From contig JBKPAK010000235.1 of the NCBI GenBank assembly GCA_046726415.1, forward strand, positions 1-17,501: a DNA stretch of 17,501 bases, read 5' to 3'. The position numbers and the translations under genes are program-made. Position 1 is the first letter of the stretch. Each line of letters opens with the position of its first letter. Below are positions 4,903 through 17,501 of the stretch, one piece after another. Below the pieces are notes generated by a model. The model was not told the DNA's origin. It searched no databases and was given only the letters and a program-made list of their open reading frames with translations. This DNA is from Candidatus Methylomirabilota bacterium (GTDB lineage Bacteria; Methylomirabilota; Methylomirabilia; Rokubacteriales; CSP1-6).

Positions 4903-5080
4903 GCTCAGATCCACGGCCACCAGTCCAACGTGGCGCGGTCTCGCATTCCGCTCATGATGCTCGACGCCCGGGAGCACGCCTAATACCTGCAGTACCAGGC
5001 GCAAGACCCTCGATGCAATGTGGCGGTATGGAACTGGAAGGTGTCGGCGAGAGGCTCATACGCGGCGCGCCGGCTCGATC
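4903..5080 (+). pseudogene. Fe/Mn superoxide dismutase C-terminal remnant
   Basis: AQIHGHQSNVARSRIPLMMLDAREHA*YLQYQ..WNW is a decayed PL..LDAWEHAYYLQY..WNW signature. It has W>R and an in-frame TAA at 4981-4983. Confidence 0.8.
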
Positions 5081-5203
5081 TACGGTTCGCGACGCTACGC
5101 TATCTCGCCGACGAGAGCATGTGCGCGAGGGCGCGGTGAAGCTGGGGGCGCTGTTCGAGGCTCAGCGGAACGCCATGTTGTTCCGTTGAGAACGGCAAGG
5201 TAA
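5075..5203 (+). pseudogene. Second tyrosine integrase extreme C-terminal remnant
   Basis: SIY..RRYAI / ADESM / REGAVKLGALFEAQR..VVPLRTAR*. Similar at nucleotide level to 222-340 and lies directly beside the att core. Confidence 0.65.
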
Positions 5204-5514: not shown

Positions 5515-5722
5515 CATCGTCCCCAGGACCCGCTGCGCCCTTGAGCCGACACTCTTGTGCGTTGACGCATTCGCCGGGCCGGGTTGGCCTCCGGGAGGCA
5601 AAGACGGCTGCCCCCGTCGCCTTGAGGAGGCTGATCGACCACTCGCACCTCCAGGACCCTCAAAGAACGTCGCGGGGGAGTCTTCATCTTCCTCGAAAAG
5701 GAGGAGGAGAACCTCAGGCTGG
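5515..5722 (+). pseudogene. TcmP-like (three-Cys-motif partner) N-terminal remnant
   Basis: VPRTRCALEPT..LLCVDAFAGPGW.PGGKDGCP / VALRRLIDHSH / VFIFLEKEEE resembles TcmP (LEPHT..YIDGFAGPG.Y..G..GSP..AL....H..F.FIE). Internally deleted and frameshifted. Confidence 0.5.
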
Positions 5723-6017
5723 CCGTTGCCAGCGTCGCGCCGTCCGATGGCGCGAAGCCCGCCGTCCACCTGGAAGAACTCCGTGAAGCCCCGCCAACGC
5801 CAATGGTCGATTGTGCGGCCGCGGTTGCGACTTCCCGGCGCCTCGGCCGTCATCACGGCGCCCCGGCCGTGGGGCTTCCGCGTCGAGCAGGCTCTTCAGC
5901 GCGCGATCTGGGAAGCGTGTGGGTGCGCGCGAATCCCGGGCGAATGAGCTGGTAGGGGTCGACCGCTCGTGACTGAAACAATGCCCTTGCTGTTGCGCCG
6001 TGGGCGGGCCAACCAGT

Positions 6018-7508: not shown

Positions 7509-8327
7509 ATGGACCAGAGCACCGGAAATGAGGGTGCGGAGGCCGGCCGATTTTACGATGCGCTGAGGTCCAGCGGGTTGTCCGCAGCGGCACTCGCGCA
7601 TGGCGCAGCCTCGATCGGTCAGGAATGCCTGCTGACGGAGGACGAGATCGCGACTCTAGCCCGGCGGGCCGGCATCACCGCCGGGGAGTCGGTGCTCGAC
7701 ATCGGGAGTGGCACCGGTGGGCCCGCGTGCTATCTGGCGCGCGAGTTCGAGTGCCGCGTGCTCGGCGTGGACGTCTCCGCCGTCGGCCATGCGCAGGCCC
7801 AGGCCCGGGCGCGCGACAGCGGGCTCGACCATCTCGCGCAGTTCTGTCTTGGCGACATCCACACCGTCGCGTTGCCACTGGCGGGTTTCGATGTCGTCAT
7901 CGGCCTCGACTCCTGGTGTCATATCCCGCGGCGCGCCGCCCTTCTCCAGCGCTGCGCGGAGCTGCTGCGTGGAGGCGGGAGGGTCGCCTTCTACGACCAC
8001 GTCGTGCGTCAGCCATTGGCCGAGGACCAGCGACAGCGTTTTTGCGCGGCGTGGCGATTCGCCGACCTCGAGAGCCCCGCGAGCTACCTCCAGGCCCTCG
8101 AGGCTGCCGGCCTCGAACCGCTATGGCATGAGGAGACCTCGGCCTACGTCACGCGCTTCTACACCCGCGTGCTCGAGGGCTACCTTGCCGAGCGGGCCCG
8201 GTTCGAAGCCGCCCGCGGGCCCGAACTCTACCAGCAGGGACGCGAGCGTCTGGAGATGAGCCAGCGTCTTGCCGCCGCGGGCGTGCTCGGCGAGTTCGGT
8301 TGTATCGCGGTGAAGCCGGCGAGCTGA
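7509..8327 (+). CDS. Class I SAM-dependent methyltransferase (copy A)
   Basis: VLDIGSGTGG motif I, VLGVDVS motif II, GDI, FDVVIGLDSWCH, LLRGGGRV. GAGGA-like RBS. Resembles sarcosine/phosphoethanolamine N-methyltransferase-like proteins. Confidence 0.92.
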   Translation: MDQSTGNEGAEAGRFYDALRSSGLSAAALAHGAASIGQECLLTEDEIATLARRAGITAGESVLDIGSGTGGPACYLAREFECRVLGVDVSAVGHAQAQARARDSGLDHLAQFCLGDIHTVALPLAGFDVVIGLDSWCHIPRRAALLQRCAELLRGGGRVAFYDHVVRQPLAEDQRQRFCAAWRFADLESPASYLQALEAAGLEPLWHEETSAYVTRFYTRVLEGYLAERARFEAARGPELYQQGRERLEMSQRLAAAGVLGEFGCIAVKPAS

Positions 8328-9608: not shown

Positions 9609-11229
<1,621 letters not shown>

Positions 11230-11244: not shown

Positions 11245-12522
11245 TCATCGGGAGGCACGGCGCTTCTCGCGCATCGTGGCTGCAAGCGAACCTGATGTGG
11301 GTCCAGGCGCCGGCTGGCGCATGGCCAACCCCACGACTCCGCCCGATAGCAGGGTGAGAGCCGCCACGACATGGATGGCCGCTTCAAGATCTATCGCGTC
11401 GGCGACCAGCCCAGAGAGTAGCGCGCCAATGGCGTACCCGAGGTCGCGCCAGAACCGGTACACGCCGAGACTCGACGCGCGCCACGTCGGATGGGCGTGA
11501 TCGGCGATGGCCGCCAGGAGTGTCGGGTAGACCATCGCGGTACCGAGCCCCTGGAGGGCGGCGGCGAGCAACCAGGCGCCGTACGCTGGCATCAGCACGG
11601 TGAGCCAGATGCCCACGGCCTGGACGACCATGCCCCACGCGATGAGACCTTTCCGGCCGACGCGATCCGACAGCATGCCGGTCGGGATCTGCAACAGGCC
11701 CCACACGATCGGGTAGACGGCCTTGACGATTCCGATGCGCTCGACGTCGAGTCCGTGGGCGCTGAAGAACAGCGGGTAGAGGCCCCAGGACATCCCGTCG
11801 TTGAGATTGTTGACCAGCCCGGCCTGACAGGCGGCGAAGAGGCTCACGTTGCCGAGCGTGGTCACGTAGAAGATGCGGCCGAGCGACAGCGGATGAGTGG
11901 GCATCGTCCCGGAGGTGGCCTCGAGCTTCACGTAGTCGCGAGTCTCTCGGACCAGGAAAATCGACATCAAGAGTCCGGCGACCGCGATGGCGATCCCGAG
12001 ATAGAACGGCTGCGGACGCAGCGCGTAGTGACCAGCGATGTACCCCGTCACCCAGGCCATTGTTCCCACCGCGAAGTAGCCCGCGAACTCGTTGAGGCCG
12101 AGGGCCAGACCCCGGCGGCGCGGGCCCACGAGGTCAATCTTCATGATCACCGTCATCGACCACGCCATCGCCTGGCTGGCGCCCAGGAGCACGTTAGCGA
12201 GGTCGATCCACCACCACACGGGCGCGTAGATGATGAGGAACGGCACGGGCAGCGCGAAGAGCCATCCCACGACGAGGACCGGCTTGCGCCCGATGCGGTC
12301 GGACAGCCGCGCCGCCACCAGGTTCAGCACAGCCTTCGACACCCCAAAGCTGACGATGAACGACGTGATCGCGGTCTTCGAGCTGAGACCGAACTCCTGC
12401 TCGCCCAGGAGCGGGAGCACGGTTCGCTCCAACCCCACCATCGCTCCCACGAAGGCGTTAAGCAGGACGAGGAGTGAGAACTGCGGGAGGTTCTCCCGCA
12501 GTCCGAGGCGGAGCTCAGTCAC
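11245..12522 (-). CDS. MFS transporter
   Basis: 425 aa with about 12 TM and MFS motif A twice (RLSDRIGRK, GMLSDRVGRK). LGLRENL.QF.LLV..NAFVG.MVGLERT subfamily. GTG overlaps the upstream stop (GTGA). Confidence 0.95.
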   Translation of the reverse strand: MTELRLGLRENLPQFSLLVLLNAFVGAMVGLERTVLPLLGEQEFGLSSKTAITSFIVSFGVSKAVLNLVAARLSDRIGRKPVLVVGWLFALPVPFLIIYAPVWWWIDLANVLLGASQAMAWSMTVIMKIDLVGPRRRGLALGLNEFAGYFAVGTMAWVTGYIAGHYALRPQPFYLGIAIAVAGLLMSIFLVRETRDYVKLEATSGTMPTHPLSLGRIFYVTTLGNVSLFAACQAGLVNNLNDGMSWGLYPLFFSAHGLDVERIGIVKAVYPIVWGLLQIPTGMLSDRVGRKGLIAWGMVVQAVGIWLTVLMPAYGAWLLAAALQGLGTAMVYPTLLAAIADHAHPTWRASSLGVYRFWRDLGYAIGALLSGLVADAIDLEAAIHVVAALTLLSGGVVGLAMRQPAPGPTSGSLAATMREKRRASR

Positions 12523-13256
12523 TCCAGGCCGAGGTTGCGCCGCCGGTTCTCCGCGAAGGCCTCCGGCTGCGGCGGCAGCCCTTCCAGCACGAACTCGACG
12601 AAGTCGGCCTTCGACCCCCTCTGCAGCGCCGGGTTGAAGCGCCGCTCGAAGCCGATCGTGGAGCCGGGCTTGCCGCTCAACCCCTTGCCACAGGCGGCCC
12701 CACCGAAGTGCGCCGGGAAGACCTCGATGTGATCCGGCAGCCGGAGGAGTGCCCCGTGGAGGCTCTCGTAGAGCTGCTCCGCCTGGGCGACCTCGACGCC
12801 CTCGCCGAGCAGGTCCGGTCGCCCCACGCCGCCCGAGAAGAGCGTGTCGCCGGTGAGCACGAACCAGGGCTCCGGGGCGCGCGTCCGGTCCGTGACCAGA
12901 AGAGAGGTGCTGTCCGGCGTGTGGCCCGGAGTGTGGAGCACCGTCACGCGGACATTCCCCAGCTCGTGCTGCTCGCCGTCGGCGACGTCGACATGCGAGA
13001 ACACGACCGGCGCCGACTGGTGGATGAGCACCGGGGCCCCGGTCAGCGCGGCGAGCCGGCGCGCCCCGGAGACGTGATCGGCCTGGACGTGCGTCTCGAA
13101 GATGTGGGTGATGCGCATGGACTTCTGGGCTGCCGCTTCGACGTAGGCCTCGACGTCAGGCTGTGGATCCACCACAGCGCAGGTGCCCTGGCCCCCTCAG
13201 CCGAAGAGATAGCTGGCGCAGCCGGTCGTGGCGTTGAGGAAATGGCGGAAGATCAT
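12519..13256 (-). CDS. MBL-fold persulfide dioxygenase-like (CstB/ETHE1-like) protein, probable selenoprotein (UGA at codon 20), 245 aa
   Basis: AAGGAGG RBS, ATG 13256, MIFRHFLNATTGCASYLFG(TGA 13199-13197)GGQGTCAVVDP, in frame with the 12519..13175 ORF. Motifs THVQADH, HTPGHT, TGDTLF.GGVGRPDL, PAH.GGAACGK, STIGFERRFN. Confidence 0.85.
13157..13196 (-). promoter_or_regulatory. Putative bacterial SECIS element
   Basis: After the UGA come 18 nt, then a perfect 7-bp stem GCUGUGG/CCACAGC closing the loop UGGAU. The loop starts 25 nt after the UGA and has G at its second position. Confidence 0.7.
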
Positions 13257-13364: not shown

Positions 13365-14309
13365 ATGACGCTCCGACAACTGGAAGTCTTCCTGGCCGTG
13401 GCTCGGGCCCGGAGCTATCGCCGTGCCGCCGACACCCTGCACACCAGCCAGCCCGCGCTCTCGCAACACATCCACGAGCTGGAGAGCGATCTCAAGGTGA
13501 AGGTGTTCGACCGGCTTGGACGGAGCGTCGCCCTCACCGAGGCTGGCCGGCTTCTCGAGACCCACGCGCTACGCGTGTTCGGCGCGCTCGACAGCGCGCG
13601 CGAGGCCATCGGGGAACTGCAGGGCCTCCAGCGAGGCTCCCTCGTGGTCGGGGCGAGCACCACGCCAGGGATCTACGTCCTCCCCAGCGTGATCGGCCAC
13701 TTCCGTCGGCAATATCCCGGTGTCGACCTGCATCTGAGGATCGCCAACTCACGGCTGATCGAGGACCGCATCCGCAACAACGAGCTGGATCTGGGCGTGG
13801 TCGGCGGTCATGGGTTGGCGGCCGGCGAGGAGTGCTTGGTCACCGGCCTGGACGACGAGCTCGTGTTGATCGTGTCGCCCCGGCACCGCTGGGCGCGGCG
13901 TCGCACGGTGGCGCCCACCGATCTCGCCAGCGAGCCTCTCCTCATGCGCGAGGAGGGCTCAGCGAGCCGTGACGTGACGGTGCGCGCCCTGCTCCAGGCC
14001 GGCGTTCGCTACCAGACCGCCATGGAGCTGGACCACACCGAGGCCATCAAGCAGGCGGTGATGGCGGGGCTGGGCGTGGCCTTCGTCTCGGTGCACGCCG
14101 TCCGCCGGGAGGTGGCGAGCGGGCATCTCGCGGGAGTGCGCCTGACGGGCGTGCCGATCCGCCGTCACTTCCACGTCATTCACCACGAAGCGCGCACGCT
14201 GGGGCCAAGCGCACGTGCCTTCCTCCAGATGCTCGCGATGCCGCCGCGCGAGTCCCGGTCGAAACAGACATCACATCGCGCGCCGCCTGACCGGGTCGCT
14301 GTCCGCTAG
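13365..14309 (+). CDS. LysR family transcriptional regulator (CysL/CmpR-like substrate-binding domain)
   Basis: MTLRQLEVF..S..RAA..L..SQPALSQHI..LE HTH; GASTTPGIYVLP, LMREEGS..R, TEAIKQAVMAGLGVAFVS. Confidence 0.95.
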   Translation: MTLRQLEVFLAVARARSYRRAADTLHTSQPALSQHIHELESDLKVKVFDRLGRSVALTEAGRLLETHALRVFGALDSAREAIGELQGLQRGSLVVGASTTPGIYVLPSVIGHFRRQYPGVDLHLRIANSRLIEDRIRNNELDLGVVGGHGLAAGEECLVTGLDDELVLIVSPRHRWARRRTVAPTDLASEPLLMREEGSASRDVTVRALLQAGVRYQTAMELDHTEAIKQAVMAGLGVAFVSVHAVRREVASGHLAGVRLTGVPIRRHFHVIHHEARTLGPSARAFLQMLAMPPRESRSKQTSHRAPPDRVAVR

Positions 14310-15001
14310 CCAGGAAGCGCGATGTGGTCGAACCCCTCGGCGTAGGTGTAGCCCTTCGTCTCCCCGAGGGCTGCCCCCGCGCGCCCGCACTTGCCCTTCC
14401 ACGGCCTTGAAGTCGCCGACCTGGGTCACATGGCAGGTGATGGCCTTTGAGTTTCAGGTCCATCACGTCGGTGATGTCGGCGACCAGCTGGGGCTGGTCC
14501 CACTGGATCAGGTACACCTCGCGCACCGCGTGCGGCTCGTACTCTGGCAGGAGTTCGGGGAAGGACAGGTGGTCTCGGGCAAGCGGGTAGATGTAGTCGA
14601 GGACGACCCCGCCAGTGATCCGATGGTCACGGTGCCAGCCGTGGAAGTTGGGAGACGTCCAGCTCGGGTTCTGCGCGATGATCAGGTCGGGCCGCCACCG
14701 GCGGATCTGGCGCGTGACATCACGCCGCAGCTGGCGTGTGTCCTCCACCTCGCCGTCCTCGTTAGCCGAGGAACTCCACATACCCAGCACCCGGGCGGCG
14801 TTCCGCTGCTCTTCCTCGCGGATCTCCGCCAGGAGCGGCGGCGGGATGGTGCGGCCGCTCGACCCCTTGTTACCGTTGGTCACGATGGCGTAGGTGACCT
14901 CGCGGCCCTCCCTGACCAGCCTCGCCACGGTTCCCCCCGCCGCGAATTCAGGGTCGTCGGGATGCGCGGTCACGACCAGGATCCGCTCGATCGCTTGTCA
15001 T
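14306..15001 (-). pseudogene. PIG-L family deacetylase/amidase (MshB/BshB/Mca-like), multiply frameshifted
   Basis: GGGAG RBS, ATG 15001. RILVVTAHPDDPEFAAGGT, VTNGNKGS, IREEEQRNAARVLG, HRDH, DITDVMDLKLK/AITCHVTQV../YAEGF. About 5 indels. The reconstructed stop shares CTAG (14306-14309) with the convergent lysR stop. Confidence 0.85.
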
Positions 15002-15086
15002 GGTTTCTCCCGTCTGGCGGTGACGGCGCCGTCGCACAGCTGGCGTGCGGTCCGAGAGCAGTCCGCCGCGTGCCGTCACCGCATCC

Positions 15087-16235
15087 TCACGTTGCCGCCG
15101 AGATCACGCGGGCTGGGCGGCCGCACTGCCACGCCGCCGCCATCAGCAAGGCCGCCCCCACGAGAAACGGCGTGGAGAGATCCACGGCATCAGCGACCGC
15201 GCCCATCACCAGAGGTCCGAGAATCTGCCCGCTATCCGTCATGGTGCGCAGCCACCCGATCGCTACCCCATGTAGAGGCGGCGGAACTTGATCTGCGATG
15301 AGGGCGGTGGGGAGGGCCGCCACGAGGCCCGCGGCAGCACCGATCGCCAGGCTCCATAGACCCAGCGCGAGTGGATGCGTCAGGAAGGTCAGACTCACGA
15401 GCAATGCGGCATAGATCACCAGGCCGGGAATCAACACGGGCAGGCGGCCCCACCGGTCTGAGATACTGCCCCCCAGCCAGAGCGCGAGAAGTCGGCCGAG
15501 CACGCTGAGGCTCACGATGAGTCCGACGGCGTCCGGGCCCACGCCACCCCGCTTGACCAGGTAGAGCGGGAAGAGGAAGACGAGCACACCAGTCTGGTTG
15601 GCGGTCAGCACTGCGTTGGTCACGCTCATGAGGAGCACACCGGGCGTGCGCAGCACCGTGGCGACGGGGCGCCACTCGCGCGATTCTCGCGGAGGCGTCG
15701 ACCGGGTGGCAGCCGGCAGCGTCCACTTCCCGACGGCAACCGCCGCCACGAGCATGCACGCCGCCTCGAACACGAACGGGCTGGCCGCGCCGACACCCTG
15801 ATAGAGCCAGCCACCCGCGGCGCTGCCCAGCAACAGCCCCGACGTCTCGCACATCAACAAGAGACTGACCGCCCGGCCCCGCCGCTGCGCGGCCGGGAGA
15901 TCGACCATGGTCGTGGTCGCGACCGTGCCGAACATGGCCCAGCCCACGCCCGCGAGGGCGCGGAAGCCCAGAAAGAAGCCGTAGGCAGAGGTCATCACGC
16001 TGGCGACATCGCTGAACGCGATCAACAGCAGCCCGCACGCCATCAGCGTCCGTCGCCCGACACGGTCCAGCACGTATCCGGTGGGCAAGCTGGCGACCCA
16101 CTTCCCCAGCCCGAACACAGTCGGGATCGACGTCACCATCCGGTAGTTCGCGGAAAACACTTCCTGCAGGTAAAGCGGCATGGTGGGACGAAGGACGCCC
16201 TGGCCAAGATTGAACAGGGCGGCGGCGGCGAGCAC
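15087..16235 (-). CDS. MFS transporter
   Basis: 382 aa hydrophobic ORF with GYVLDRVGRR and GSISDRWGR motifs. The start is uncertain, as the frame stays open to about 16289. Confidence 0.9.
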   Translation of the reverse strand: MLAAAALFNLGQGVLRPTMPLYLQEVFSANYRMVTSIPTVFGLGKWVASLPTGYVLDRVGRRTLMACGLLLIAFSDVASVMTSAYGFFLGFRALAGVGWAMFGTVATTTMVDLPAAQRRGRAVSLLLMCETSGLLLGSAAGGWLYQGVGAASPFVFEAACMLVAAVAVGKWTLPAATRSTPPRESREWRPVATVLRTPGVLLMSVTNAVLTANQTGVLVFLFPLYLVKRGGVGPDAVGLIVSLSVLGRLLALWLGGSISDRWGRLPVLIPGLVIYAALLVSLTFLTHPLALGLWSLAIGAAAGLVAALPTALIADQVPPPLHGVAIGWLRTMTDSGQILGPLVMGAVADAVDLSTPFLVGAALLMAAAWQCGRPARVISAAT

Positions 16236-16269
16236 AGCGACGGCCCCTTGCCACCACCGAGCGCCTTCT

Positions 16270-16755
16270 CTAGCGATGATGGCTCTTCCTCATAGCTCGC
16301 GAAACTTTCGGCGCGGAGTGGCAGCGACACGCCGTGCCGCGCACCGGGACCTCCTCGAGGTCGAGGCAGCGGCAGCCTTCGTGAGAACGCGCCCGCGATC
16401 GCGTCTGGAGTCGCCGCAACACGTGTTCGAGCTGTCGCTGGAGCAAGCCCAGCTCGCTGATCTGGTGTTGCACCGCGGACAGGTGTGCGCGGACGGCCTC
16501 GAGCAAACGTGGGCGCATCGCCGCGCGAGGCCCGCCGCTCAGCGCCACCGCCAGGGTCTTGAGGTGGTGCACTGACAGTCCAAGCGCCCGAGCCCGGCGG
16601 ATGAACCTGAGCTGCTGGACGGCCTGCTCGCCGTACTGCCGGTATCCCGCCGCGGTGCGGCCCGGCGGTGGCAGCACGCCGACCTGTTCGTAGTAGCGAA
16701 TGGTCTTCGCCGCCATGCCGGTAGCCTTGGCGACCTGGCCCACCGTCAATGCCAT
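16270..16755 (-). CDS. MerR family transcriptional regulator (161 aa) with C-terminal CRC..CRC
   Basis: GGGAGGTG RBS, ATG 16755. LTVGQVAKATG..AKTIRYYEQVGVLPPP.RTAAGYRQY..LRFIRRARALGLS, then a coiled coil. Confidence 0.95.
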   Translation of the reverse strand: MALTVGQVAKATGMAAKTIRYYEQVGVLPPPGRTAAGYRQYGEQAVQQLRFIRRARALGLSVHHLKTLAVALSGGPRAAMRPRLLEAVRAHLSAVQHQISELGLLQRQLEHVLRRLQTRSRARSHEGCRCLDLEEVPVRGTACRCHSAPKVSRAMRKSHHR

Positions 16756-16783
16756 CGGCTCACCTCCCGTGTCTGCGTTGCGG

Positions 16784-16814
16784 AGGATAGACCTTCCAGT
16801 GACGGGAAGGTCAA
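16784..16814 (-). promoter_or_regulatory. MerR-type promoter (19-bp spacer) with CueR-like operator
   Basis: Minus strand TTGACC-19 bp-TATCCT. Perfect dyad ACCTTCC-N7-GGAAGGT at 16791-16811. Confidence 0.9.
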
Positions 16815-16912
16815 GGAGGTTCGGCACAGCCTTGGGGTGGTCCGATCGGGCTCGTTGTCGTGCGCGGACGCGCGCCGAAGGGAATATCCTGGGCGCCCGA
16901 GGAGGACCGTGC

Positions 16913-17501
16913 ATGGACCAGAGCACTGGAAGTGAGGCTGCGGAGGCCGGCCGGTTCTACGACGCACTACGGTCCAGCGGGCTGTCCGCGGCGGCCCTCG
17001 CGCATGGCGACGGGTCGATCGGTCAGGAATGCCTCCTGACGGTGGACGAAATCGCGACTCTAGCCCGGCGGGCGGGCATCACCGCCGGGACGCCGGTGCT
17101 GGACATCGGCAGTGGCACCGGTGCGCCCGCGTGCTATCTGGCGCGCGAGCTCGGGTGCCGCGTGCTCGGCGTGGACGTCTCCGCCGTCGGCCATGCGCAG
17201 GCCGAGGCCCGGGCTCGCGACGACGGGCTCGACCATCTCGCGCACTTTCGTCTCGACGACATCCACACCATCGAACTGCCGCCGGAGGCTTTCGATGTCA
17301 TCATCGGCCTCGACTCCTGGTGTCACATCCCGCGGCGTCCCGTCCTCCTTCGGCGCTGCGCGCAGCTGCTGCGGCCGGGCGGGAGGGTCGCCTTTTACGA
17401 CCACGTCCTGCGTCAGCCGTTGGCCGAGGACCAGCGGCAGCGTTTCTGCGCGGTGTGGCGGTTCGCCGACCTGGAGAGCCCCGCGAGCTACCTCCAGGCC
17501 C
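16913..17501 (+). CDS. Class I SAM-dependent methyltransferase (copy B), runs off the window end
   Basis: GGAGGA RBS, ATG 16913, frame open to the end: MDQSTGSEAAEAGRFYDALRSSGLS..VLDIGSGTGAPACYLA..DSWCHIPRR. Colinear with 7509-8097. Missing from the ORF track because there is no stop in the window. Confidence 0.93.
   Translation, partial: MDQSTGSEAAEAGRFYDALRSSGLSAAALAHGDGSIGQECLLTVDEIATLARRAGITAGTPVLDIGSGTGAPACYLARELGCRVLGVDVSAVGHAQAEARARDDGLDHLAHFRLDDIHTIELPPEAFDVIIGLDSWCHIPRRPVLLRRCAQLLRPGGRVAFYDHVLRQPLAEDQRQRFCAVWRFADLESPASYLQA

Follow-up and report, generated by a model that had tools for sequence, protein, structure and literature searches.

Bacterial selenocysteine insertion sequence (SECIS) elements are hairpins located just 3' of the UGA codon that is to be read as selenocysteine (Sec). 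In the bacterial SECIS (bSECIS) model, as given in the Fig. 2 legend of PMC13188914, the apical loop measures 3-9 nt, the upper stem 4-16 bp, at least one G lies within the first two loop positions, and the free energy is -7.5 kcal/mol or lower. Here, we describe a hairpin of this type in a 17,501-nt stretch of DNA from a Candidatus Methylomirabilota bacterium (contig JBKPAK010000235.1), the whole of which we refer to as the window. The hairpin follows an in-frame UGA at codon 20 of a gene encoding a metallo-β-lactamase (MBL)-fold protein. We propose, with a probability of roughly 85%, that it is a bSECIS that would recruit SelB with Sec-tRNA(Sec) and so decode UGA-20. Judging by comparative sequence evidence, the element appears to be an authentic SECIS of the bacterial type, and its gene a member of a CstB-like family of MBL-fold selenoproteins.

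By sequence, the closest solved relatives of the window protein are 3tp9 and 3r2u (32-40% identity). The latter is Staphylococcus aureus CstB. In that enzyme, according to PMC12934615, C201-G202 mimics glutathione and undergoes self-S-sulfonation at the Fe site; Cys20 is persulfidated or sulfonated in crystals, and no role is assigned to it.

An in-frame UGA is followed by a SECIS-like hairpin

The gene and the parts of the element are as follows.

12519..13256 (ATG 13256, TGA 12521-12519), minus strand: MBL-fold gene of 245 codons plus stop, assigned by translation and Pfam PF00753
13264..13270, minus strand: Shine-Dalgarno sequence AAGGAGG, 7 nt before ATG 13256, recognized by sequence
13199-13197, minus strand: in-frame UGA, codon 20 of the MBL-fold frame, putatively read as selenocysteine U20
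13196-13179, minus strand: 18-nt spacer GGGGGCCAGGGCACCUGC, codons 21-26, constant in length and variable in sequence
13181-13160 (coding sequence nt 76-97), minus strand: invariant 22-nt block TGC GCT GTG GTG GAT CCA CAG C, frozen across the Sec clade
13178-13160, minus strand: SECIS-like hairpin GCUGUGG-UGGAU-CCACAGC, within all four bSECIS constraints
13178-13172, minus strand: 5' arm GCUGUGG
13171-13167, minus strand: apical loop UGGAU, starting 25 nt from the UGA
13166-13160, minus strand: 3' arm CCACAGC, followed by CUG at 13159-13157

The minus strand reads exactly as an earlier, sequence-only reading of this DNA had claimed for the UGA, spacer and hairpin. The 5' arm GCU-GUG-G spans Ala27, Val28 and Val29, and the 3' arm CCA-CAG-C spans Pro31, Gln32 and codon 33. 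That reading had also held that the A/T-ending codons GCT and CCA are required for Watson-Crick pairing of the stem, and the pairs bear this out: the U of GCU (Ala27) pairs with the A of CAG (Gln32), and the A of CCA (Pro31) with the U of GUG (Val28), in a gene whose GC content at third codon positions is 0.91.

We coded four constraints of the bSECIS model from the Fig. 2 legend of PMC13188914. The hairpin has a 5-nt loop, UGGAU, on a stem of 7 Watson-Crick bp; a G occupies loop position 2 and the next base is also a G; the distance of 25 nt from UGA to loop is within the model's range; and the free energy is -11.1 kcal/mol for the 19-mer and -12.2 for the 25-mer. The hairpin thus passes all four, and it has the small apical loop with an early G, just 3' of the UGA, that the sequence-only reading gave as typical of bacterial SECIS elements. 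At the level of DNA, the core of the hairpin also holds a perfect 10-nt palindrome, GTGGATCCAC (which includes GGATCC), at 13163-13172, offset from the axis of the RNA hairpin.

The hairpin is frozen across TGA loci

A genome scan yielded 52 homologous loci, 2 of them partial at codon 20 and 50 readable. Codon 20 is TGA in 30 of the 50; almost all of these are in metagenome-assembled genomes (MAGs) labelled Rokubacteria or Methylomirabilota, with 72-84% identity, and one, locus L029, is in a Vulcanimicrobiota MAG (56% identity). It is TGC/TGT in 17 loci, from Mesorhizobium and proteobacterial MAGs (45-53% identity), and TCG or GAT (Ser/Asp) in the remaining 3. The 19-nt hairpin is identical in 29/30 TGA loci, L029 being the exception, and occurs as well in L023, where the contig begins within the gene; in all, about thirty genomes of related bacteria from soil and groundwater carry it. 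The hairpin is missing from all 17 Cys loci. Hence it is neither equally present in the Cys-encoding homologues nor absent from the other TGA-containing ones, the two outcomes that the sequence-only reading had named as fatal to its proposal. The bSECIS constraints are passed by 29/30 TGA loci, 3/17 Cys loci and 0/3 Ser/Asp loci. Spacing from UGA to loop is 25 nt in 28 of the 29 hairpin-bearing TGA loci and 27 nt in L028. This last locus (5058-5140) has a 2-nt shift between TGA and hairpin, which causes a frameshift, and L015 runs to 323 codons because its 3' end is altered; the probable cause in either case is misassembly or decay of the copy.

Conservation was quantified on a codon alignment of 27 distinct full-length coding sequences, the window and 26 loci, after dropping L015 (323 codons), L028 (frameshift), L029 (outlier) and L052 (partial). 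Identity averages 77% over all nucleotides and 57% at third positions, and the block in question has been maintained throughout this divergence: the longest invariant run is 22 nt, the runner-up 5 nt. Among 110 degenerate codons with an unchanging amino acid, 11 are always written with a single codon, and 7 of these 11 are the consecutive codons 26-32; with random placement, a run of at least 7 such codons arose in 1 of 1,000,000 permutation trials. The codons concerned are as atypical as the sequence-only reading had supposed, since elsewhere in these genes GCT accounts for 4.8% of Ala and CCA for 8.4% of Pro; GAT makes up 33% of Asp and GTG 37% of Val, and the product of codon frequencies puts the exact string at ~1.4e-4. 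Codon 33 encodes Leu, Gln, Pro or His, always with a C first, and it is this C that pairs with the G of GCU. Spacer codons 21-25 are variable in sequence. All 7 stem pairs are unchanged in 29/29 aligned TGA sequences, and the loop is as frozen as the stem at its synonymous sites (the G of GUG-29 and the U of GAU-30), which fits sequence-specific recognition. We take this conservation across genomes to be far beyond chance, and the comparison to be decisive. Since the hairpin is kept letter for letter in about thirty genomes, the UGA is predicted to be a selenocysteine codon and the gene to encode a selenoprotein.

The 22 nt might instead serve some other purpose, either as a palindromic protein-binding or restriction-type site, GTGGATCCAC, or as an mRNA stability element. 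The perfect 10-nt palindrome would suit such a role, as would the potential of the Cys forms to fold a hairpin here too (see below), but the invariant block is longer than the palindrome, its co-occurrence with TGA is strict (29/30 against 0/17 Cys loci) with a fixed spacing, and no further copy of the hairpin was found in the locus flanks or elsewhere in the window. We therefore regard this explanation as highly improbable. Nor did the window and all loci contain any further convincing NGGNU-loop hairpin behind a TGA.

Coding constraint on both sides of the UGA

Variation is coding-like upstream of the UGA, with entropies of 0.26, 0.14 and 0.87 at positions 1, 2 and 3 of codons 2-19, and codons 33-245 show a likewise third-position-biased pattern. 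Codons 1-19 encode the N terminus of the MBL family (MIFRxF..GCASYLxG), which aligns from residue 1 in Cys homologues, and the N-terminal residues form strands 2-8 and 13-20 in the AlphaFold2 (AF2) model. In most TGA loci an AGGAGG-like motif precedes the same ATG. TGA is the stop codon of 8 of the 13 window genes examined, the MBL gene included, and no other internal in-frame TGA is seen; because TGA is an ordinary stop here, even of the MBL gene itself, recoding would be site-specific rather than a change of genetic code. Finally, the in-frame TGA aligns with a conserved Cys (TGC/TGT in 17 loci), forming a Sec/Cys pair, and TGA orthologues occur in other organisms (30 loci) with coding conservation on both sides.

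Existing gene calls reflect the interruption. Among the best 120 protein matches of a word-indexed search (78-95% identity), 118 are calls of 199-219 aa whose first residues are V(V)DPQ or a later Met, and only 2 are full length, both with Cys at position 20. Since 118 of these best 120 start just after the TGA, the interruption is widespread. Such calls, together with the GUG codons that lie within the 5' arm and the loop, are what one would expect if the UGA ended a 19-residue leader and the enzyme started at GUG codons 28/29, with the hairpin regulating re-initiation. However, codons 1-19 are the family N terminus, are under protein constraint and supply strands 2-8 and 13-20 of the AF2 fold; no conserved Shine-Dalgarno sequence precedes the GUG codons, where the spacer varies (GGGGGC vs AGCGGC), and the conserved motif sits before the ATG. 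A leader peptide thus seems to us about as improbable as another purpose for the 22 nt.

Another way past the UGA would be read-through without Sec, the hairpin slowing the ribosome or blocking the release factor while a near-cognate tRNA (Trp, Cys or Arg) is used. Read-through can in general be stimulated by structures that lie beyond a stop codon, and this hairpin is close to its UGA. Against this, the UGA aligns with Cys in a classic Sec/Cys pair, the synonymous-site loop bases are invariant, as expected for recognition by a protein and not for a mere roadblock, the geometry fits the bSECIS model, and the neighbouring LysR gene best matches a selenium-associated family. Selenoproteins are moreover reported to be abundant in the phylum, one Methylomirabilota MAG having 63 predicted genes for them (in the part of PMC13188914 consulted), and Methylomirabilota are listed among the phyla with Sec-type hydrogenases in the consulted part of PMC13582414. 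We consider read-through without Sec very unlikely.

Under the SECIS interpretation, the mRNA would be translated from ATG 13256 and Sec would be inserted at the UGA in place of termination, giving a 245-residue MBL-fold protein with U20. From the comparative evidence, we infer SelB binding, actual Sec insertion and a chemistry of U20. Because the element lies within the frame, codons Cys26-Ala-Val-Val-Asp-Pro-Gln32 and the first base of codon 33 would serve protein and RNA at once, and this dual role would explain why the rare codons GCU, CCA and GAU are fixed.

Near-identical Sec-form genes are also found in MAGs labelled Deferrimicrobiaceae, Limnocylindria, Binatia and Enterobacteriaceae (L001, L003, L005, L008 and L018); mis-binned or mislabelled contigs are a more likely cause of these odd labels than wide lateral spread.

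Observations that weigh against a SECIS

Several observations weigh against this interpretation, beginning with the hairpin as seen in one sequence. For the 25-mer, the free energy of -12.2 kcal/mol corresponds to z = -2.92, an equally good fold appearing in 1/200 shuffles; the 73-nt context is unexceptional (z = -0.72, with 46/200 shuffles as stable). Perfect hairpins whose stems reach 7 bp or more are common, at ~8 distinct ones per 17.5-kb strand (~1 per 2 kb). The bSECIS constraints are permissive, being passed at 2000/17421 (11.5%) and 1768/17421 (10.1%) positions of the two strands, or at 3.1% and 1.6% of positions with a free energy of -11.1 kcal/mol or lower. Loop UGGAU lies outside the commonest sub-pattern of the model, in which N1 and N2 pair; here they are U and U. 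Rfam gives zero matches in the whole window at gathering thresholds, and even with E values as high as 10 the hairpin region has no relevant match. A scan of the window and of 31 locus flanks found no tRNA-Sec. On its own, the hairpin in a single sequence is only mildly above chance and is weak evidence.

The alignment adds further points of this kind. RNAalifold on the 29 TGA sequences found no covariation in any of 18 predicted pairs, because the stem never varies, and recovered only the invariant hairpin, lower stem and flanking helices being unconvincing; the covariation to which the sequence-only reading had looked for support is thus lacking. When 12 codons were recoded synonymously with clade usage, a median of 21/300 recodings (range 0-52) were as stable as the Sec-clade originals, so that by free energy this region is only moderately more stable than its recodings. 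The earlier claim of selection on RNA consequently stands as regards the invariance of synonymous sites, and finds no backing in compensatory change or exceptional stability.

Cys forms fold other, equally stable hairpins at the same place. At the hairpin site these loci read GCC/GCG, GTC/GTG, GTC, GAT, CCG/CCC and then ATC/GTC GGC, and hairpins of the form GUCGUCGAU-CCG-AUCGGCGAC and variants, in codons 27-35 (L031-L046), reach -11.5 to -20.9 kcal/mol in a 14-member alpha-proteobacterial clade. They derive from the VVDP(I/V)GD codons (GUC GUC GAU CCG AUC GGC GAC), and their stability is close to codon-usage expectation, recodings averaging ~-12 kcal/mol with a median of 44.5/300 as stable. 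They vary synonymously without compensation at codons 27, 28, 31 and 34, their longest invariant runs are 8 and 7 nt, and their CCG/CCC triloops have no early G. Since the Cys forms fold as well, it is the rare-codon, frozen, fixed-distance hairpin that is specific to TGA, and not the mere presence of a hairpin. Codons in the Cys-form hairpin are mostly preferred ones, yet Asp30 is GAT in 14/14; this hairpin may be functional, may be left over from a former SECIS, or may simply follow from the peptide motif.

Locus L029 (705-770) has TGA at the same codon and lacks the conserved hairpin. Its alternative folds (-11.5 kcal/mol, z = -2.2) include none that satisfies the constraints with a contiguous stem, and the tree groups it with Cys forms and not with the Sec clade. 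Possible readings are a Sec form that arose independently and uses a different SECIS, a pseudogene, or an error.

This locus, the L028 frameshift and the commonness of such hairpins in any one sequence would suit a pseudogene, or a TGA arising from sequencing error with a hairpin there by chance. The comparison of homologues and the permutation test already contradict that view: 30 species-level assemblies, produced by independent projects, have TGA at this same codon, 27 sequences keep an intact frame before and after it, and the metal-site and Cys residues are invariant in 27/27, leaving it hardly credible. The sequence-only reading had likewise argued against a random nonsense mutation. Weighing these points, we retain the bSECIS as the preferred reading.

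A CstB-like protein with a predicted Sec/Cys site

PF00753 (Lactamase_B; E 1.7e-13) is the only Pfam domain found in the protein, and no dedicated NCBIfam model fits, the best being GloB with 87 bits against a cut-off of 200.8. The AF2 model has a predicted local distance difference test score of 96.9, and Foldseek aligns it with template modelling scores of 0.94 to 3tp9, 0.88-0.92 to 3r2u chains and 0.84-0.85 to ETHE1-type persulfide dioxygenases, which identifies an MBL fold of the persulfide dioxygenase type. We also made an exhaustive search of cluster representatives, in which homologues with 40-58% identity align from residue 1. In the resulting 151-sequence alignment (the query read as C, and 150 representatives), column 20 holds 61 Cys, 38 Asp, 14 Ser and 36 gaps.

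The Sec motif is C13-ASYLFG-U20-GGxxx-C26. Invariant in 27/27 sequences are C13, C26, H56, Q58, D60, H61, H112, D137, H183, C189 and G190. The metal motif THVQADH (HxQxDH; codons 56-58 at window 13083-13091, minus strand) is shared by the 26 other Sec-clade sequences. Gln58 in this motif aligns with the Fe-ligand His56 of CstB, so that the His-His-Asp Fe(II) triad of CstB (H56, H119, D145) is incomplete, H112 and D137 being present. A residue other than His at position 58 (Q, T, N or E) is found in 8/150 representatives, all with Cys at position 20. The Cys-Gly loop is retained, C189-G190 aligning with C201-G202 of CstB and being nearly invariant in an 89-sequence alignment. There is no fused rhodanese with a catalytic Cys (CstB C408), as the protein ends at residue 245; many Cys homologues are ~460 aa long and carry extra length.

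By alignment and model, the product appears to be a stand-alone CstB-like domain of the persulfide-dioxygenase type. The likeliest role of U20 is in redox chemistry or persulfide handling, as the partner of the invariant C26 (U-x5-C), and our best guess for the protein as a whole is a selenol-based persulfide or redox role. Given Sec at the Cys20 position and the change of His to Gln, selenol chemistry or an altered metal site may set it apart from known persulfide dioxygenases.

Genomic neighbourhood

The genes next to the MBL-fold gene are as follows.

13365..14309, plus strand: LysR-family regulator, divergent (Pfam HTH_1, LysR_substrate)
11245..12522, minus strand: major facilitator superfamily (MFS) transporter gene, GTG start overlapping the MBL stop (GTGA) (Pfam MFS_1)
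10771-11229, minus strand: DUF6196 gene, downstream of the MFS gene
9609-10583, minus strand: NifS/IscS-like cysteine desulfurase (Pfam/NCBIfam)

For the window LysR, the top NCBIfam model is NF040786, "selenium metabolism-associated", with 233 bits, below the curated cut-off of 250. The same model is matched by all 26 LysR orthologues scanned (best E 8.6e-77), and no family does better across the set. A LysR match lies beside the gene in 27/30 TGA loci, short in L026 at a contig end, and in 0/17 Cys loci. The link of this regulator to selenium is that given in the name of the NF040786 family.

By tblastn, 28/30 TGA loci have an MFS orthologue, which in L029 lies upstream of the gene, and so do 16/17 Cys loci. 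Since start and stop overlap, as GTGA or ATGA across loci, the MBL and MFS genes are probably translationally coupled. Within the MFS codons (GLRENLPQF), 17 nt past the MBL stop, lies a perfect 10-bp hairpin, ACUGCGGGAG-AAC-CUCCCGCAGU (12479-12502, minus strand), which is present in many TGA loci and shows synonymous-site variation in others; it may have a part in the coupling of the two genes, or it may simply reflect the peptide palindrome LRE-N-LPQ.

Linkage of the desulfurase is seen in the window and also in seven loci of the Cys form (L038, L041-L044, L046, and L051, where it lies with the MFS gene beside a partial copy of the MBL gene). Its frame in the window (9609-10799, minus strand) is open for ~70 codons upstream of the first ATG/GTG/TTG, with the Pfam match starting from profile position 65, which points to a non-canonical start or a degraded or diverged N terminus.

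Near the LysR-MBL-MFS unit is a second cluster (14176-16926) with a PIG-L-type deacetylase, a second MFS transporter and a MerR regulator; its presence in at least five loci (L008, L012, L013, L016 and L021) suggests a larger conserved neighbourhood. Two S-adenosylmethionine (SAM)-methyltransferase genes (7509-8327 and 16700-17500) have weak, far sub-threshold matches to selenoprotein models of the arsenite-methyltransferase type, and the examined part of either gene has no in-frame TGA. ARAGORN calls an 85-nt tRNA-Pro(CGG) at 5691-5775 on the minus strand, with the anticodon at position 30, where Rfam gives no tRNA even at E <= 1; the call is probably spurious, centred on a 7-bp hairpin (5734-5756).

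Origin and novelty of the family

In a quick maximum-likelihood tree of 61 rows, built with column 20 excluded, 27/28 Sec rows form one supported clade (Shimodaira-Hasegawa-like approximate likelihood ratio test, SH-aLRT, 96), which also contains four Cys proteins. As 27/28 Sec rows share this clade, much of the conservation is inherited from one origin. Two of these four, the full-length Cys forms P0003 and P0041, are identical to the window protein over a C-terminal stretch (from about residue 53 in P0003, over a shorter part in P0041) and differ upstream; they look like assembly chimeras or Sec/Cys recombinants.

Deng et al. 2026 (Cell Rep) reportedly describe novel, unvalidated selenoprotein candidates from groundwater MAGs, and the present family may already be mentioned among them. 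Our literature searches returned no MBL-fold or persulfide-dioxygenase selenoprotein. The 119 families and subfamilies in Table 1 of PMC13188914 include no MBL-fold, PF00753 or persulfide-dioxygenase entry. An MBL selenoprotein family is likewise absent from the main texts of deep-Sep, BSepDB and the 2022 review, from four deep-Sep supplements and from the part of the BSepDB supplement consulted. Relatives sourced from NCBI are truncated and named plain "MBL fold metallo-hydrolase". The family is therefore absent from the checked catalogues, and the element itself is of an ordinary bSECIS kind.

A broader proposal, which we put forward tentatively and would not bet on, is that this is the first selenoprotein family of the MBL superfamily, with U20 at the position of CstB Cys20, invariant C13 and C26, Gln for an Fe-ligand His, selenol chemistry or an altered metal site, and an operon with MFS and desulfurase genes under a selenium-associated LysR.

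Significance and comparison with known systems

Gene callers and the NCBI pipeline truncate this gene, so the proteins of the whole clade are recorded without their first two β-strands and the predicted Sec residue. A 22-nt element frozen while genomes differ at 43% of third positions is a clean example of overlapping protein and RNA constraints, and for Methylomirabilota (Rokubacteria), whose selenoproteomes are reportedly very large, it offers a defined candidate for SelB binding. Sec at the CstB Cys20 position, combined with a His-to-Gln change at the Fe site, is a testable lead on the role of that residue, whose persulfidation and sulfonation in CstB are so far unexplained.

Like the bSECISearch consensus and the SelB-binding hairpins of the Escherichia coli fdhF type, the element is an in-frame stem-loop just 3' of a putative Sec-UGA, with a small apical loop in which an early G is followed by another, 25 nt from the UGA. 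It differs from the bSECIS sub-pattern in having U-U where N1 and N2 would pair, and from bacterial SECIS elements in its perfect 7-bp stem with no bulge and no convincing conserved lower stem, and in being frozen in sequence clade-wide with no compensatory variation. Its sequence is presumably unrelated to the SECIS elements of E. coli. With catalogued prokaryotic selenoprotein families, the MBL-fold family shares the Sec/Cys alignment, many TGA orthologues, a downstream bSECIS-like element and truncated mis-annotation. Its fold is common to S. aureus CstB (3r2u; 28MT-28MY, PMC12934615) and Alicyclobacillus 3tp9, both persulfide dioxygenase-rhodanese fusions. Unlike CstB, the window protein (245 aa) has no rhodanese domains; Gln58 stands where CstB has H56, and at the position of Cys20 it carries the predicted Sec, U20.

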